Source: Bdellovibrionota bacterium
GTDB lineage: Bacteria; Bdellovibrionota_C; UBA2361; JBIKWN01
Reading direction: 5' to 3'
NCBI GenBank assembly: GCA_044356295.1
Contig: JBIKWN010000006.1
Span: forward strand, 7,134 to 71,133
DNA: 64,000 nucleotides
Position 1 is the stretch's first letter, and each line of letters begins with the position of its first letter. Of this stretch, positions 31,941-63,442 are shown piece after piece. The notes beneath the pieces are model-generated. The model was not told the DNA's origin. It did no database searches and saw nothing but the letters and a program-made list of their open reading frames with translations. The position numbers were made by a program, and so were the translations under genes.

Positions 31941-32101
31941 GGGGACGCTCACCTTTATAAGAAGCCACTACGGTTTGTTAGAAATTAATTGAAGATATTT
32001 TAAGTAACGCGAAGGTCGCGAAGTACGCGAAGGGTTAATTTTTTCCTTCGGGTACTTCGCGACCTTCGCGTTATTTAATTAAGTCATAAAAGTGAGCACC
32101 C
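31941..32101. terminator. Long nested hairpin between convergent genes; also a member of a repeat family
   Basis: Outer arms ggggacgctcac / gtgagcacccc. Inner perfect hairpin taacgcgaaggtcgcgaagtacgcgaagg ...ccttcgggtacttcgcgaccttcgcgtta. A partial second copy lies at 37811-37858. Confidence 0.55.
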
Positions 32102-36030: not shown

Positions 36031-37001
36031 TCTGAATTGACAGTTAACTCTAAAAAAATACCTCGGTGGTCACTTCCTTCAACGGGCAGTACTTCAGCTT
36101 GATTAACAAAAATATTTTTATTAACAAATGCTCTATCGATCATAGTTTGCAGGAACCAAATATCTTGATTCCATGTTGATTGAAAACCAAACCCCCAAAA
36201 GACATCTCGAACTCGTGCTGCTTTCATAAAAGACCGAGTAATTCTTCCCGCCGGTGCTGAATTAAAATCACCAGCAATGAGCCAAGGTTCATGAGAGTGT
36301 CTTGCTTCGGTCGCAACTCGACGTGACATATTTCTTGCCTGTTCCCATCGGTAAGCCGAGATTGGAGGAGGAAGATGGAAAATAACAATGTTAAGAGGAG
36401 TAGTTTTTTGTAAAGCATCCTGACCACCTAGTAAAATTCTTGCATGAATATAGCCAGGAACATCTGGTCCAAGGTCGGTTTTAGGCTCTCTTTCAAATGG
36501 AAATTTCGAAAAGAGCTCTAACCCCCAAACTGATTGATCAAAAACTGTGGCACGGTAGGGATACAGGTTGATGAGTGTTGTTTTTTCAACCCACCGCAGG
36601 TCTGATTCCGCAATTGCAATTACTTGAGGTTGTTTGGTCTTAATAATTTCTGTAAGCCACTCTGTACCATCATTTCTTAAATATTTATTGGCAAAAACAA
36701 ATGAAATTTTTGATAGCTCAGTACTAGCATTATTTTTAATCGAAGATTGATTATAGAGATAATAAGGAAGATAGATTTGTACCGATCGTGCCAACGGGAG
36801 CAACAGTATAATCGTGAGGGCTACTTTTCTAAAAGGATGACTATGAAAGGGAATACTTCGAAAATGAGTGATTGCAGCAAAAATACAATAAACAAAAATA
36901 TAATGATGAAAGCCAGCCAATGCTTCTTGAAAAAAGAACCACTGACGAAAACTTGTTAGATAGAAAATAGAATAAGGTAACCAGAAGAAAAGTAGTGTCA
37001 C
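36015..37001 (-). CDS. Membrane-anchored endonuclease/exonuclease/phosphatase (EEP) family protein
   Basis: N-terminal TM helices, then GDFNSAP and a C-terminal SDHRGIFLEL. Confidence 0.7.
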   Translation of the reverse strand: MTLLFFWLPYSIFYLTSFRQWFFFQEALAGFHHYIFVYCIFAAITHFRSIPFHSHPFRKVALTIILLLPLARSVQIYLPYYLYNQSSIKNNASTELSKISFVFANKYLRNDGTEWLTEIIKTKQPQVIAIAESDLRWVEKTTLINLYPYRATVFDQSVWGLELFSKFPFEREPKTDLGPDVPGYIHARILLGGQDALQKTTPLNIVIFHLPPPISAYRWEQARNMSRRVATEARHSHEPWLIAGDFNSAPAGRITRSFMKAARVRDVFWGFGFQSTWNQDIWFLQTMIDRAFVNKNIFVNQAEVLPVEGSDHRGIFLELTVNSDQAAP

Positions 37002-37007
37002 TTAACT

Positions 37008-37370
37008 TTATGCTTCGTTCCAATCAAGAACACCTTTTTTCCATACATAGAGGAGCCCTCCTCCAAGAACAACAATGAAAGAAAGCATTGCATAGAAACC
37101 AGACCATCCAAGTTCTTTTAAATTTACTGCCCATGGGTACATAAATATGACTTCGATATCGAAAAGGATAAAAAGCATGGCGACAAGATAAAATCGAACA
37201 TTGAACCTTTGATCTTTGACTGATCCAACAGATACCGAGCCACACTCGAAGGGTAGTTGTTTTGTTTTAGTTTTGTTCTTCGGTCCAAGAATCGAAGAAA
37301 GCGCAAGCATAGTGATTAAAAAGCCAGCGCAAACAACGGTAAGGGCTAATATTCCTGCATATCCATTCAT
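37008..37370 (-). CDS. nuoA: NADH-quinone oxidoreductase subunit A
   Basis: LPFECG...FYLVAMLFILFDIEVIFMYPWA is the NuoA/ND3 signature. No nuoB follows it. Confidence 0.85.
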   Translation of the reverse strand: MNGYAGILALTVVCAGFLITMLALSSILGPKNKTKTKQLPFECGSVSVGSVKDQRFNVRFYLVAMLFILFDIEVIFMYPWAVNLKELGWSGFYAMLSFIVVLGGGLLYVWKKGVLDWNEA

Positions 37371-37500
37371 AGACTCAACATATTACTCCCGTGCCCCCAT
37401 CACGAACAAGAGCTACAAATTAGAGGCACATGCCGATGAAAAGTTTTATATGCTAAGAAAATGACAATCGCTTAAACTTTCGCTAAAATCCCCCCTCAAT

Positions 37501-37574
37501 GCACTCGTAGCTCAGTTGGATAGAGCAACCGCCTTCTAAGCGGTGGGTCGGAGGTTCGAATCCTCCCGAGTGCG
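37501..37574 (+). tRNA. tRNA-Arg (anticodon TCT)
   Basis: Cloverleaf folded by hand. Acceptor gcactcg/cgagtgc. D-arm gctc-agttggata-gagc. Anticodon stem accgc/gcggt with loop cTTCTaa. T-arm ggagg-ttcgaat-cctcc. Discriminator g. Confidence 0.85.
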
Positions 37575-37790
37575 ATTTTTAGATTTTTTAGTGCTTTAGT
37601 TAGAGGGAGGATTCGAACCTCAAAACAACAAGGTCGAATCGTTCTAAGGTTGCGGTGCGTAGCAGCGCAGCCTCCCGAGTGCGATTTTTAGATTTTTTAG
37701 TGCTTTAGTTAGAGGGAGGATTCGAACCTCAACAACAAGGTCGAATCATTCTAGGGGTACGATGCGTGGCAACGCAGCCTACCAATGCCA
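37562..37790. repeat. Tandem ~109-bp duplication made of tRNA-Arg 3'-end fragments
   Basis: cctcccgagtgcgatttttagattttttagtgctttagttagagggaggattcgaacctc occurs at 37562-37620 and 37671-37729. Each unit carries a direct copy of the tRNA 3' 13 nt and an inverted copy of the T-arm. Confidence 0.55.
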
Positions 37791-37810
37791 CTACTGTCCG
37801 GCAGCGAATC

Positions 37811-37858
37811 ATTGAAGACATTTTTAGTAACGCGAAGGTCGCGAAGTACGCGAAGGGG
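37811..37858. repeat. Partial copy of the 32005-32073 hairpin repeat
   Basis: attgaagacatttttagtaacgcgaaggtcgcgaagtacgcgaaggg matches aattgaagatattttaagtaacgcgaaggtcgcgaagtacgcgaaggg at 31990-32034. Confidence 0.6.
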
Positions 37859-37950
37859 GAAATTAAAAATTTATTCGTACCGGGTAATTGTGTGACGCTT
37901 CGCTGATGTAAAGATATATCTGAGTCATTCGATTTGCTAGAATTTTATCT

Positions 37951-38286
37951 ATGCAAGAAATCACCTGGTCAGATTTTGAAAAAGTTGAATTGCGAGTTGG
38001 AACAATTATTGAAGTGAATGATTTTCCACAAGCTCGAAAGCCTGCCTTGAAATTAAAAATTGATTTCGGAGAAATCGGCATCCTTCAGTCAAGCGCTCAG
38101 ATCACTGAACAGTATCCAAAAGAAGATCTTATTGGAAAGCAAATCCTTGCTGTGGTTAACTTTCCAAAAAAACAAATTGCAAACTTCTTCTCTGAGTGTC
38201 TTACGACTGGTGTAGCGAATCACGTGGGGGAAGTTATACTTGTTTCTCCTGATAAAAAAGTTCCTAATGGGGCTCGTCTATTTTAA
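37951..38286 (+). CDS. csaA: tRNA-binding-domain protein CsaA
   Basis: DFEKVELRVGTIIEVNDFPQARKPALKLKIDFGE is the Myf/tRNA-binding OB-fold signature. Confidence 0.85.
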   Translation: MQEITWSDFEKVELRVGTIIEVNDFPQARKPALKLKIDFGEIGILQSSAQITEQYPKEDLIGKQILAVVNFPKKQIANFFSECLTTGVANHVGEVILVSPDKKVPNGARLF

Positions 38287-38317
38287 TACTAATCAGTTGC
38301 TTTTGCGTCGTTAGCTC

Positions 38318-39289
38318 ATGTTTCAAGATCTACTGTTCGATCAAATCTCTAACTATAAAAATGAGTTCAAAAGCATCCTCTTGGTAAATGCTGAAGTTTC
38401 TAAAGAACTCACAGAACCTCAGTTCAAAGAATATCTTTCTGTAATACAATCTGAAAAAGCAGCTTTTGATGCATTATCTAAGATCTCTACTCATGCTTTC
38501 TCTTCCCTTTCACAGTTACGAGATATTCAATTTGATATAGTACTTTTTCAGGGGACACGATTTAAAGAAAGGAACCTTTCAGTACTTTCTGCGCTCCCAA
38601 ACATTCTTAAATCTGGAGGACTTTTTATTGAAGTACTTTCGAATATGCACGGAGCTTCTCGGTATGAAAAAATCCTGAAACAATCTTATCAAGCAGAAAT
38701 ATTTTCTGATTCAAAAAGAAAAGCAAGGGTTTTCGGTATAGCTGATTTCAATCCGACATTTTTTAATCTTTCAGAACCAGTACTAGATAAAAATCAATCC
38801 CGAGCAAGCTTTAATAAAGGCGAATTAGATAAAGGGTCTTTGTTGTTAGCAGAATGTTTAGCGGGAAAACTTTCTGGTGAAATTTTTGAATTCTGCTCTG
38901 GTAGTGGATTGTTAGCATCAAGGCTTACGAACGACTCTCCACTTATTACAAAATGCATTGGGTTTGAATCTGACTTCGACTCGTACGAACGATCAAAGGA
39001 GATTGAAAATGATAAGATCTCTTTCCAATGGCAAGATATTCTTTCACTTCCTGAGTCAGTAAAATTTAAAACAATAGTAGTAAATCCACCGTTTCACGAT
39101 GCTGACGGAGAAAATATAAAACTAGGATTGAAAATTATTCAGAAAGCATTGTCGCTTCTTAAAACAAATGGCAATCTTTACGTCGTTCAAAATTCGCATC
39201 TGCCTTATTTAAGGGATCTCAAACTTCCAAAGAGAGCAGAGATACTAAGTCAACAAAACGGTTTTATGGTATGGCATTATGAGGCTTGA
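38318..39289 (+). CDS. Class I SAM-dependent methyltransferase, RsmC/RlmG-like (rRNA m2G)
   Basis: SAM-binding motif EFCSGSGLLASRL and the amino-MTase motif IVVNPPFH. Confidence 0.7.
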   Translation: MFQDLLFDQISNYKNEFKSILLVNAEVSKELTEPQFKEYLSVIQSEKAAFDALSKISTHAFSSLSQLRDIQFDIVLFQGTRFKERNLSVLSALPNILKSGGLFIEVLSNMHGASRYEKILKQSYQAEIFSDSKRKARVFGIADFNPTFFNLSEPVLDKNQSRASFNKGELDKGSLLLAECLAGKLSGEIFEFCSGSGLLASRLTNDSPLITKCIGFESDFDSYERSKEIENDKISFQWQDILSLPESVKFKTIVVNPPFHDADGENIKLGLKIIQKALSLLKTNGNLYVVQNSHLPYLRDLKLPKRAEILSQQNGFMVWHYEA

Positions 39290-61150: not shown

Positions 61151-62023
61151 ATGCCAGATAAATTAATCAAAGTTGATGCCTGCGACGATGGTGTTGAACA
61201 TCATTACGAACTCATTCAAGAAATAGCGCACGTACAAACTGCCCGTCAAAAAATTGAGATTGATAATTTTAAACGTTTCGGAGTTGGTGTTTGGATTGAT
61301 GGCTGGCCTCAGTGTGCTGAATTTGATTCAGACCGTTATCACGAAGCACTTGTACATCCTTCCTTAATTCACCGAGCTAGCAGTTCAACTCCATTTACTG
61401 CTTGTATTTTAGGTGGTGGTGATTTTGGAGTAGTCAATCAATTAGTTAAATATAAAAATTTGCAATCTGCTCATATGATTGATTGGGATTTAGAATTTAT
61501 TGAACTAACAAAAAAACATCTTACGCCAATCCATCATGATTCATGGAAAGATCCTCGTGTTACTGTTGAAACAAAAAATCCAGATGTCTTTCAATTTTTC
61601 GAAGTCAACAAAGAGCAGTTTGATATTGTATTTGGAGATTTAACTGATCTGACTTCAATGGGCTCTGGGGTAAAAAGTTTTATTGAGCAGATTAAAACTC
61701 TTGTAAAAAGTGATGGTGTATTTGTGTCTCAAAGCTCGGAATATCCAACAATGCCCAGCCAATACGAGGAATTTATCTCAATGGTGAAAATGGTAGGTTC
61801 TATTTTTAAGAAAGTCTGGATTTATAAAACATATGTCCCCTCTTTTGCCTATGAGCAGGCTTTTATTCTTGGGACTGATTCATTAACCTTTAATCCTCTC
61901 GCATCCTCTGCTTCTGTGATTGATGAGAATATTTCAGCCTTGAATAAGCCCCTGACTGAGTATTCTGGTGCAATTCATCACGGAATGTTTGCACTGCCTC
62001 CATCCCTTACATCTCGACTTTAA
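61151..62023 (+). CDS. Spermidine synthase-like aminopropyltransferase-fold protein
   Basis: CILGGGDFGVVNQLVKY and FDIVFGDLTDL resemble the SpeE GGGDGG and D-h-DSTDP motifs. Confidence 0.65.
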   Translation: MPDKLIKVDACDDGVEHHYELIQEIAHVQTARQKIEIDNFKRFGVGVWIDGWPQCAEFDSDRYHEALVHPSLIHRASSSTPFTACILGGGDFGVVNQLVKYKNLQSAHMIDWDLEFIELTKKHLTPIHHDSWKDPRVTVETKNPDVFQFFEVNKEQFDIVFGDLTDLTSMGSGVKSFIEQIKTLVKSDGVFVSQSSEYPTMPSQYEEFISMVKMVGSIFKKVWIYKTYVPSFAYEQAFILGTDSLTFNPLASSASVIDENISALNKPLTEYSGAIHHGMFALPPSLTSRL

Positions 62024-62065
62024 AGCTAGTTTCGAATAGCATAAGAGTCTTCAGTTCAGTTCTAA

Positions 62066-62138
62066 GGCCCGGTAGCCAAGTGGCTAAGGCAGCGGTTTGC
62101 AAAACCGTCACGCGCCGGTTCGACTCCGGCCCGGGCCT
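62066..62138 (+). tRNA. tRNA-Cys (anticodon GCA)
   Basis: Acceptor ggcccgg/ccgggcc. Anticodon stem gcggt/accgt with loop tTGCAaa. T-arm gccgg-ttcgact-ccggc. Discriminator t. Very close to the E. coli tRNA-Cys arms. Confidence 0.9.
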
Positions 62139-62281
62139 ATTTCTTTTGTTTTTCTTACTATATTTTGTCCCGGGACGGAGGCGAACCTGCATTGCCGTAT
62201 GGCAATGCAAAATAACACTGTGACTCCGGATTACTGCGGAGCAGTAATTTTACCCGGGCCTATTTCTTTCAAAATGATTGT
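62130..62281. repeat. 17-nt direct repeat of the tRNA-Cys 3' end (cccgggcctatttcttt) at 62130-62146 and 62253-62269, with a degenerate tRNA-like segment between
   Basis: The second copy is preceded by gactccgg (a T-arm half) and a 19-nt palindrome attactgcggagcagtaat. Confidence 0.55.
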
Positions 62282-62299
62282 TGCCCCTGAGTTTCTAAT

Positions 62300-63442
62300 T
62301 TGATGTACTTTGAAGTCATGAAAAAAATTCCACTCTATTGTACTTTGTTCCTTCTATTAATTACCTCCTCAATCGCGCATTCGCAAACAGTACTCTGCGC
62401 CAGGAAAACAAATGGAATAATTACATTAAGAAATAAAAAATGTACTTCTAAAGAAACGAAAATCAGTAAGTTATCCCAGCTTAAAGGTGAAACTGGATCT
62501 GCTGGTACTAATGGCACAAATGGAACCGATGGCGATATTAAAGTTTGGGGCGACGGCTCTGCTGGATCTGTTACTTTTTCTTCATCGTATTCTGATAGCA
62601 ATCCACAATTTACTAATATTACTTTTGAATCAGGATCTGCTTTTGCCAGTGGAGCTGTAATTCGAGCAACTGGTACATGTACAATCAATGGTGCTATTAG
62701 TATCGAAAATAGTGGTTTTGGCGGACGTTATGAAACAATTACAGCTACGACTCTGAGCCCAGCGACCAGATTATCAACAACAGGAGTTTCCTTTACCAAC
62801 GCAGGTTTTGGTGAATTTGGAACAAACGCAAATACTTTATCCGCAGGCAGATTTGGCATCGGATTATCTCCTGCTGAACTAACTTCGCTAAAAATAACTT
62901 CTGGTCATAGTTCTGGAGGAGCTGGCGGCCCTGGATATCTAGCTTCTGCTGGTGCAGCAGGTGGTGCATTTGCGCTTTATTGCAAGCTTGGAATTGTGAT
63001 TAACGCTTCAGGCTCTATAACCGCAAACGGGGGTAGTTCTGCTGGCGCTGTTGGTGGTGGTGGTGGTGGCGCTGGTGGCTTTATTTTTCTGGCATCATCG
63101 GGTTCTATAGTTAATTCAGGAACCATTAGCGCAAATGGTGGCGATGGCGGAGCTTCATCAACAAGAATAGGTGCTGGAGGAGGTGGCTCTGGAGGTGTTG
63201 TTAGAGCAATTGCCCCTGTCATTACGATTGGAACAACATCAGTCACTGGAGGAACCGCAGGCTCTAATTTAAGCCCTGTCACATCCAGCCCTAGAGTTGG
63301 TGGTAGCGGAGGCGGTGGGTTTGGTGGCGACGGAGGTTTAGGTGGCGCAGTATCCTCAGATAATATGGCATTTCCAGCAGGAAGTGGTGCAAGCGGGGCT
63401 GTAATTACTACGATTGCTGATCCTACATCACTAATATTCTAA
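62300..63442 (+). CDS. Secreted glycine-rich protein with a short collagen-like G-x-x run and a Gly/Ser/Ala-rich beta-helix-like body
   Basis: Signal peptide LYCTLFLLLITSSIAHSQT. GETGSAGTNGTNGTDGD. Long GGxGG tracts. Confidence 0.6.
   Translation: MMYFEVMKKIPLYCTLFLLLITSSIAHSQTVLCARKTNGIITLRNKKCTSKETKISKLSQLKGETGSAGTNGTNGTDGDIKVWGDGSAGSVTFSSSYSDSNPQFTNITFESGSAFASGAVIRATGTCTINGAISIENSGFGGRYETITATTLSPATRLSTTGVSFTNAGFGEFGTNANTLSAGRFGIGLSPAELTSLKITSGHSSGGAGGPGYLASAGAAGGAFALYCKLGIVINASGSITANGGSSAGAVGGGGGGAGGFIFLASSGSIVNSGTISANGGDGGASSTRIGAGGGGSGGVVRAIAPVITIGTTSVTGGTAGSNLSPVTSSPRVGGSGGGGFGGDGGLGGAVSSDNMAFPAGSGASGAVITTIADPTSLIF

Follow-up and report, generated by a model that had tools for sequence, protein, structure and literature searches.

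Why should a tRNA gene be followed by a tandem array built from pieces of its own 3'-end? This question is raised by the tRNA-Arg(TCT) gene of an uncultured bacterium of the Bdellovibrionota, represented by a metagenome-assembled genome (MAG), on a 64-kb stretch of DNA with a G+C content of 38.6% that was analyzed as a whole and is called the window in the following. An earlier inspection of the letters alone (the sequence-only reading) had interpreted the array as scars of integrase-mediated insertion and excision. We regard a different answer as reasonably probable, namely that the blocks behind tRNA-Arg are repeats of the kind known as RtT in Escherichia coli, i.e. partial copies of the upstream tRNA gene and its trailer that are arranged in tandem and have been remodelled. 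The RtT design fits the Arg units better than do scars of inserted viruses or islands.

Anatomy of the array behind tRNA-Arg

The tRNA-Arg gene was identified by the Infernal tRNA model with 72.3 bits (E 2.9e-15), whereas ARAGORN placed it at 37500-37575. Two units follow, the first of which begins at the base directly after the tRNA gene. They are composed as follows (lengths in nucleotides, nt):

37501 to 37574, plus strand: tRNA-Arg(TCT) gene
37575 to 37683, plus strand: unit 1, 109 nt
37575 to 37601, plus strand: AT-rich trailer of unit 1
37602 to 37621, plus strand: inverted T-arm copy of unit 1
37631 to 37640, plus strand: partial direct T-arm of unit 1, AGGTCGAATC
37642 to 37648, plus strand: anticodon-loop-like TTCTAAG of unit 1
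37648 to 37672, plus strand: GC-rich hairpin of unit 1
37671 to 37683, plus strand: direct copy of the last 13 nt of the tRNA, end of unit 1
37684 to 37790, plus strand: unit 2, 107 nt
37684 to 37710, plus strand: trailer of unit 2, the same as that of unit 1
37711 to 37730, plus strand: inverted T-arm copy of unit 2
37738 to 37747, plus strand: partial direct T-arm of unit 2
37756 to 37783, plus strand: hairpin of unit 2
37778 to 37790, plus strand: decayed third 13-mer CCTACCAATGCCA (9/13), end of unit 2

With units of 109 and 107 bp, the tandem duplication of about 109 bp made of tRNA 3'-pieces that the sequence-only reading had described behind tRNA-Arg(TCT) is confirmed. The exactly repeated block, given there as 59 nt at a distance of 109 bp, has this spacing but a length of 62 nt (37562-37623, identical to 37671-37732); it opens with the last 13 nt of tRNA-Arg, CCTCCCGAGTGCG. 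Behind the block another 53 nt share 85% identity with a 2-nt indel (37624-37676 versus 37731-37783). The two units are homologous over their full length and have the same boundaries. The 13-mer copies of the tRNA 3'-end are separated by 96 nt, and an identical trailer sequence of 49 nt stands behind both of them. Each unit contains the 20-mer AGAGGGAGGATTCGAACCTC (37602-37621 and 37711-37730), and 17 nt of this 20-mer show perfect complementarity to the T-arm of tRNA-Arg at 37551-37567, in agreement with the inverted T-arm copies noticed before.

This arrangement is not explained by chance. Matches of the 20-mer did not occur in any of 100 shuffles, and the direct and inverted scores of the Arg locus were not reached together in any of 3000 shuffles of the downstream sequence. 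Further copies of the Arg unit were found neither elsewhere in the 64 kb nor in the examined loci of relatives.

A common plan at other tRNA genes

The only other tRNA gene of the window, tRNA-Cys(GCA), is followed by a single unit of the same plan:

62066 to 62138, plus strand: tRNA-Cys(GCA) gene (ARAGORN, Infernal)
62139 to 62269, plus strand: single unit directly after tRNA-Cys (repeat comparison, fold)
62139 to 62168, plus strand: AT-rich trailer, 30 nt
62169 to 62190, plus strand: inverted copy of T-arm and acceptor (19/22)
62188 to 62209, plus strand: perfect hairpin
62222 to 62229, plus strand: partial direct T-arm, GACTCCGG
62230 to 62248, plus strand: second perfect hairpin
62253 to 62269, plus strand: exact 17-nt direct repeat of 62130-62146, i.e. 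the last 9 nt of the tRNA and 8 nt of trailer

The inverted repeat at this site comprises 22 nt at 86% identity, and again none of 3000 shuffles reached both the direct and the inverted score. The core of the Cys unit is kept in a relative (L112) in which the product of the neighboring gene is 79% identical. In this core one compensatory change was observed in a hairpin stem, from GCATTGCC/GGCAATGC to GCATCGCC/GGCGATGC, and the inverted copy matches the T-loop variant of its own tRNA at the sole site where the two tRNAs differ. Another relative (L111) carries tRNA-Cys without a unit.

The plan common to these cases consists of a trailer, an inverted T-arm, a partial direct T-arm, a hairpin insert and a direct copy of the tRNA 3'-end. 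When all tRNAs of the retrieved loci were screened, it was also detected in a MAG labelled Deltaproteobacteria UBA2409 (L031, 6160-6350, minus strand), where a single unit occupies the spacer between tRNA-Ser(CGA) and tRNA-Phe. It is composed of a 27-nt trailer, an inverted T-arm matching at 19/19 positions, GGGCTTCGAATCC, a perfect 9-bp hairpin and then CCTCTCTCTCCG; the direct copy of the tRNA 3'-end comprises 12 nt. Among 33 different tRNA loci examined as a control, a direct score of at least 18 combined with an inverted score of at least 25 was restricted to loci that bear the plan, including tyrT/tyrV of E. coli.

Two further instances came from viral contigs searched with a generic pattern (GGTTCGAATCC, 28-50 nt, GGATTCGAACC). 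These are arrays of T-arm fragment, inverted T-arm and direct 3'-copy that lack a complete tRNA and are located on contigs spanning prophage-host junctions, one with a phage endolysin gene on one side and a host-like transporter gene on the other (L105, 13640-13740) and one behind phage tail-fibre genes (L108, 8280-8415). Since both were derived from a virus-only collection, their location at prophage junctions reflects a sampling bias. A search of viral contigs with a related pattern led to a phage tRNA-Trp followed by an inverted T-arm copy only (L114, 400-480). The more specific pattern CCCGAGTGCG-N15-45-GGAGGATTCGAACC had no match in the viral contigs; in the metagenome contigs, a collection that does not comprise the window's own contig, it gave two unrelated chance matches at real tRNAs. 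The 3'-end of tRNA-Arg(TCT) matched once in the viral contigs, at an unrelated tRNA-Arg(ACG).

RtT repeats of E. coli as a counterpart

Repeats of 178 bp behind the E. coli tyrT gene were already known in the late 1970s, and catalogues list them as a family of enterobacteria. Egan and Landy reportedly described the 178-bp unit in 3.14-fold repetition in 1978, and release of an rtT RNA by processing is said to have been found by Bösl and Kersten in 1991. In E. coli K-12 we found the common plan three times behind tyrV and once between tyrT and tyrV, in a region annotated with rttR and tpr (L110). In the E. coli unit, a trailer of 59 nt is succeeded at offsets 60-81 by tRNA positions 56-77 in inverted copy (19/22); then come AAGGTTCGACTC, an insert rich in hairpins and, at offsets 160-178, the 19-mer AATCCTTCCCCCACCACCA. 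The Rfam model of RtT (RF00391) scored 133-138 bits on these units and on the tyrT-tyrV spacer, and the outer helix of its consensus is formed by the inverted copy GGGGAAGG pairing with the direct copy CCUUCCCC.

The units described here share with RtT their location, which is either immediately downstream of a tRNA gene or in the spacer separating two such genes, the Ser unit representing an operon spacer. Tandem repetition is common to RtT and the two Arg units, which have a period of 109 nt, whereas the Cys and Ser units are single. Furthermore, the 3'-terminus of the tRNA is copied exactly at the end of a unit, after which the same trailer follows, and within the unit an AT-rich trailer precedes the inverted T-arm copy, the element that pairs with the direct copy in the Rfam consensus. 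Internal hairpins and a middle part weakly colinear with the tRNA body complete the likeness. The differences concern the source (tRNA-Arg and tRNA-Cys of Bdellovibrionota versus tRNA-Tyr of enterobacteria), the length of the units (107-123 nt versus 178) and trailers (27-30 nt versus 59), and the direct copy, which comprises 13 nt without an encoded CCA in the Arg case and 9+8 nt in the Cys case versus 19 nt in E. coli. In addition, the best fold predicted for the Arg unit consists of two adjacent hairpins, whereas RtT adopts a closed form. An open reading frame resembling tpr did not come to notice, although no examination was directed at it.

The RtT site is itself variable within E. coli. 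In strain SK1144 (L109), fatty-acid and sterol desaturase genes are located 17 nt after the tyrV tRNA instead of RtT repeats, and the tyrT-tyrV spacer measures 33 nt compared to 209 nt in K-12. Among the RtT units, one codes for the small RNA RttR (PMC3318445), some RtT helices are supported by covariation (PMC7657543, PMC8250186), and enterobacterial RtT-like sequences have been connected with bacterial interspersed mosaic elements (BIMEs) (PMC2965389).

Predicted folds and tRNA-derived middles

Fold predictions yielded z-scores between -2.1 and -5.1 over all units. Arg unit 1 reached -34 kcal/mol (z = -3.8) and Arg unit 2 a z-score of -2.1, while the Cys unit, closed by a helix CCCGGG:CCCGGG, reached -40.5 kcal/mol (z = -4.6). 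For the Cys unit, the Ser unit, L108 and E. coli, the predicted minimum-energy fold contains the outer helix between the inverted and the direct copy, which closes a Y-shaped structure. When tRNA and unit were folded together (37501-37690 and 62065-62275), the minimum-energy structure paired the 5' acceptor strand with the distal 3'-copy and the T-arm with the inverted copy, which as a purely thermodynamic prediction represents an alternative to the cloverleaf.

The RtT unit of E. coli has a middle that is colinear with positions 6-62 of tRNA-Tyr (p = 0.0035). The middle of Arg unit 1 is colinear with tRNA positions 27-53 and has the anticodon-loop heptamer in register (p = 0.02, obtained with a gentler scoring scheme and to be taken as weak support only), and comparison of the Cys middle with its own tRNA gave p = 0.05. 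This suggests that the units may be remodelled and decaying direct copies of the tRNA gene in which the 5'-part was replaced by an inverted T-arm. An earlier test of the 3'-part of the unit as a displaced tRNA 3'-half was not significant (p about 0.2).

Proposed origin and expression of the units

From this anatomy we infer that the units could have originated by local duplication of the 3'-part of the tRNA gene and its trailer, either by unequal crossing-over or by slippage between copies of the 3'-end. A switch of the replication template at the T-arm, which is a natural short inverted repeat, would have generated the inverted segment and the direct-inverted-direct order. Direct-inverted-direct triplications have been attributed to template switching at short inverted repeats and subsequent deletion of the palindromic junction arms (PMC4689423). 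The units resemble such products, known from origin-dependent inverted-repeat amplification (ODIRA) and tandem inversion duplications (PMC4689423; Kugelberg et al. 2010 cited there), in the order of segments, in being seeded at a short inverted repeat, here the T-arm, and in their asymmetric, partly deleted junctions. They differ in scale, with about 100 bp instead of kilobases and an inverted segment of only 17-22 nt. A simple one-step tandem duplication was rejected because the first 62 nt of the period are identical in both Arg units while the last ~30 nt and the 13-mer are diverged by ~28% (Fisher p = 0.0015). Later gene conversion may have kept the first 62 nt identical.

The analogy with rtT RNA of E. 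coli suggests that the Arg units are probably transcribed together with the tRNA and would form its 3'-trailer, starting from a promoter-like site:

37461 to 37489, plus strand: promoter-like site ATGACA-17-TAAAAT upstream of tRNA-Arg (consensus scan 10/12; a consensus match only)

Once transcribed, the units would adopt stable hairpin or Y shapes, the inverted copy being paired with direct copies, and as in the case of rtT RNA they may be cut out as discrete small RNAs. Since every unit terminates in a copy of the tRNA 3'-end with the same trailer behind it, the context of 3'-processing is repeated, and the units would thus be excisable individually. A role of the Arg units as terminators was discarded because no terminator-like site was detected in 37300-38000 and no T-run follows the inverted copy.

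A number of observations weigh against the interpretation as RtT-like trailer repeats. The RtT model RF00391 did not match at E<=10 in 36500-39000 or 61800-62600, and judged by sequence the Arg and Cys units are related to RtT by architecture, not by homology. In Arg unit 1 complementary segments GGGAGG:CCUCCC are present, but the closing helix of the RtT type that they could form is absent from the minimum-energy fold and costs +5.4 kcal/mol compared to it. The similarity of the middles to the tRNA body is weak, and it was not significant for Arg unit 2 (p = 0.52, with the gentler scoring) and the Ser unit (p = 0.12). The inverted segment is located off-centre relative to the T-loop, contrary to the prediction from a simple snap-back. 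Moreover, the combination of an identical 5'-part and a ~28% diverged 3'-part makes a single tandem duplication insufficient, so that a conversion step is required. Finally, the units are missing behind the orthologous tRNA-Arg of close relatives, and any function must therefore be dispensable.

Neighboring elements and gene content in relatives

The Arg array is flanked by a second type of repeat and by a gene encoding a putative tRNA-binding protein:

about 31964 to 32075, no strand assigned: intact palindromic element resembling repetitive extragenic palindromic (REP) sequences, between convergent genes (alignment)
37787 to 37905, no strand assigned: decayed copy of the same palindromic element, adjoining the Arg array (alignment to the intact copy)
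37951 to 38286, plus strand: csaA-like gene, 111 amino acids (aa), PF01588 tRNA-binding domain (Pfam E 1.8e-14)

The arms of the palindromic element are built from three 9-nt repeats (ACGCGAAGG TCGCGAAGT ACGCGAAGG); in the decayed copy the left arm is intact and the right arm degraded. A hairpin-repeat fragment had been recognized here by the sequence-only reading, and it corresponds to this intact left arm at 37811-37857, which is 96% identical to that of the intact element (blastn). The palindromic element occurs in two copies in the window, whereas the Arg unit has no second site. Like REP elements and BIMEs, the units are stable intergenic palindromes, and a true REP-like element abuts the Arg array; they differ in that they are tRNA-derived and not dispersed, their sequence being set by the neighboring tRNA. 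A short-period repeat resembling the arms of the palindromic element, ACGCAGAGG in three copies, is located behind the Cys unit of the relative L112 (2375-2410).

The csaA gene is located between the units and an MTS methyltransferase gene in the window as well as in a strain whose CsaA is 96% identical. The best genome matches of CsaA were Bdellovibrionota MAGs with 67-75% identity, and none of the best loci has a tRNA beside csaA. In other Bdellovibrionota csaA is found at unrelated sites. The position of csaA, which encodes a stand-alone tRNA-binding-domain protein, beside a tRNA gene and tRNA-like repeats may be a coincidence.

Closer relatives were gathered via NuoA homologues. The sequence of tRNA-Arg is identical or nearly so in L092-L094 and L098/L099. 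The loci with a 90% identical NuoA (L092-L094) show full synteny, but in them tRNA-Arg is followed after 84 nt by the MTS methyltransferase gene, and units, palindromic element and csaA are all missing behind the tRNA. In a group with 85% NuoA identity a tRNA-Thr gene precedes tRNA-Arg and a gene of 857 aa follows after 24 nt, and in a relative with 86% identity nuoA directly adjoins a Methyltransf_24 gene, a tRNA being missing there. In L096 (83%) tRNA-Arg(TCT) was found at positions 1-60, at the contig end and in opposite orientation to nuoA. L095, L096 and L098 have other arrangements at the tRNA-Arg site. The strain with 96% identical CsaA has a Methyltransf_24 gene, a gap of 455 nt and then csaA, and possibly carries one unit fewer. 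The flank of tRNA-Arg is a hotspot of structural change among the relatives, while the genes around the site are all housekeeping genes common to them.

A gene for a flagellin-like FG-GAP protein and Methyltransf_24/21 genes are located next to nuoA in L095 (1241-4925), at the place of tRNA-Arg in the window, and genes of the same description directly behind tRNA-Cys in L111 (3624-6286). That the two groups represent one mobile island was considered and rejected, because they share Pfam families but no nucleotide similarity and the L111 group has no flanking tRNA fragment.

Alternative explanations

The alternative that survives best, although we consider it unlikely, is the one put forward by the sequence-only reading. 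Elements with a tyrosine integrase would have entered the 3'-end of tRNA-Arg and later been lost, leaving stacked attL/attR-like copies and csaA as residual cargo. Repeats of tRNA fragments at attL and attR are reported by Reiter et al. in 1989 and Williams in 2002 to flank integrase-borne islands and prophages. The Arg array resembles these in having a direct repeat of the tRNA 3'-end after an intact tRNA gene at a site of variable gene content. Such direct repeats are present at both tRNA-Arg and tRNA-Cys, and the DNA behind both genes varies among close relatives (csaA, the 857-aa gene, the flagellin/methyltransferase group), which amounts to indel polymorphism. Decay is further advanced in the third 13-mer than in the second, which would be the case for an older displaced 3'-end, and two further instances of the plan lie at prophage-host junctions, where the bias of the virus-only collection has to be considered.

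On the other hand, the integrases that had been proposed to be sought near the copies did not appear: neither the genes that flank tRNA-Arg and tRNA-Cys nor 20 other mid-sized open reading frames (ORFs) tested in the window (~250-510 aa, 3 of the 20 having no Pfam match) yielded an integrase or transposase family. Only 96 nt without foreign cargo separate the 13-mer cores, and both cores precede the same 49 nt, whereas attL and attR precede different DNA. The csaA gene is not enclosed by the repeats, as its far side bears none, the plan is likewise present where two tRNA genes of equal orientation are neighbors (L031, E. coli), and the island at tRNA-Cys of L111 lacks a flanking tRNA fragment. 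An inverted T-arm copy is foreign to att scars. The duplicated 3'-end and the hotspot thus stand, but the integrase mechanism is not supported. Neither do the two stacked units reflect repeated events, as had been supposed; they are paralogous over their whole length, copies of one unit with the same boundaries.

Clearly less probable is that the unit acts as a recombination site in folded single-stranded form or as a small palindromic element that is mobile. As single-stranded DNA it would fold by pairing of the inverted copy with the direct copies, mimic the double-stranded T-arm and acceptor region, and mark or mediate the integrase-independent capture of genes such as csaA. Folded single-strand sites are known from the attP(+) hairpin of the CTX phage, which mimics dif, and from integron attC sites. 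The strong palindromic structure, present on both strands, would suit such a site, as would the REP-like element adjoining the Arg array, the similar short-period repeat beside the Cys unit in L112, and the shift of gene content in relatives exactly at these sites. However, the sequences are specific to each tRNA and thus do not form one mobile family. The Arg unit occurs nowhere else in the 64 kb, the architecture pattern had only the two chance matches mentioned above, none of them viral, and no recombinase candidate was found among the ORFs tested.

Cryptic functional tRNA genes on either strand are a very improbable explanation of the blocks. Measured from the inverted copy through the 13-mer, the span approaches the length of a tRNA (79 versus 74 nt, in the Ser case 87 versus 88), and the anticodon-loop heptamer TTCTAAG is in the expected register. 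However, ARAGORN and the Infernal/Rfam tRNA model at E<=10 recognized only the Arg and Cys genes in the window and nothing inside the units on either strand, and GAGTGCG has no acceptor-stem partner inside any unit. Functional tRNAs in the units are thereby effectively refuted, whereas a version with decayed pseudo-tRNAs is absorbed into the interpretation as RtT-like repeats.

The array is not an artefact of assembly, and a collapsed or mis-joined repeat is the least credible of all explanations: a k-mer assembly broke exactly at the repeat edges 37591 and 37830, but an independent JGI contig (L002) is 99.9% identical and gap-free over the whole intergenic region, the gene spacing of 580 nt at the locus recurs in a third contig, and the units differ in their 3'-parts, so that their order can be resolved by short reads.

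Implications

The interpretation as RtT-like trailer repeats has consequences beyond this locus. The plan was built from the own sequences of different tRNAs, behind both tRNAs of the window, in a second MAG and at two unrelated host-prophage junctions, which suggests a general mutational process at tRNA 3'-ends or a general use for tRNA trailers. It provides a concrete search pattern for genome-wide surveys. For methods that search for genomic islands it implies caution, since a tRNA 3'-fragment downstream of a tRNA gene is not always an att site.

More tentatively, and with less confidence than in the assignment of the Arg blocks, RtT may be one case of a widespread and unrecognised class of tRNA-trailer elements, found at many tRNAs in distant phyla. 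An inverted and a direct copy of the T-arm and 3'-end of the respective tRNA would arise de novo and, through concerted evolution, stay in agreement with that tRNA, giving the precursor a built-in alternative fold. If this is true, such trailer elements could gate tRNA maturation or yield RNAs that mimic tRNA ends, and they could make the flanks of tRNA genes prone to recombination without integrases.

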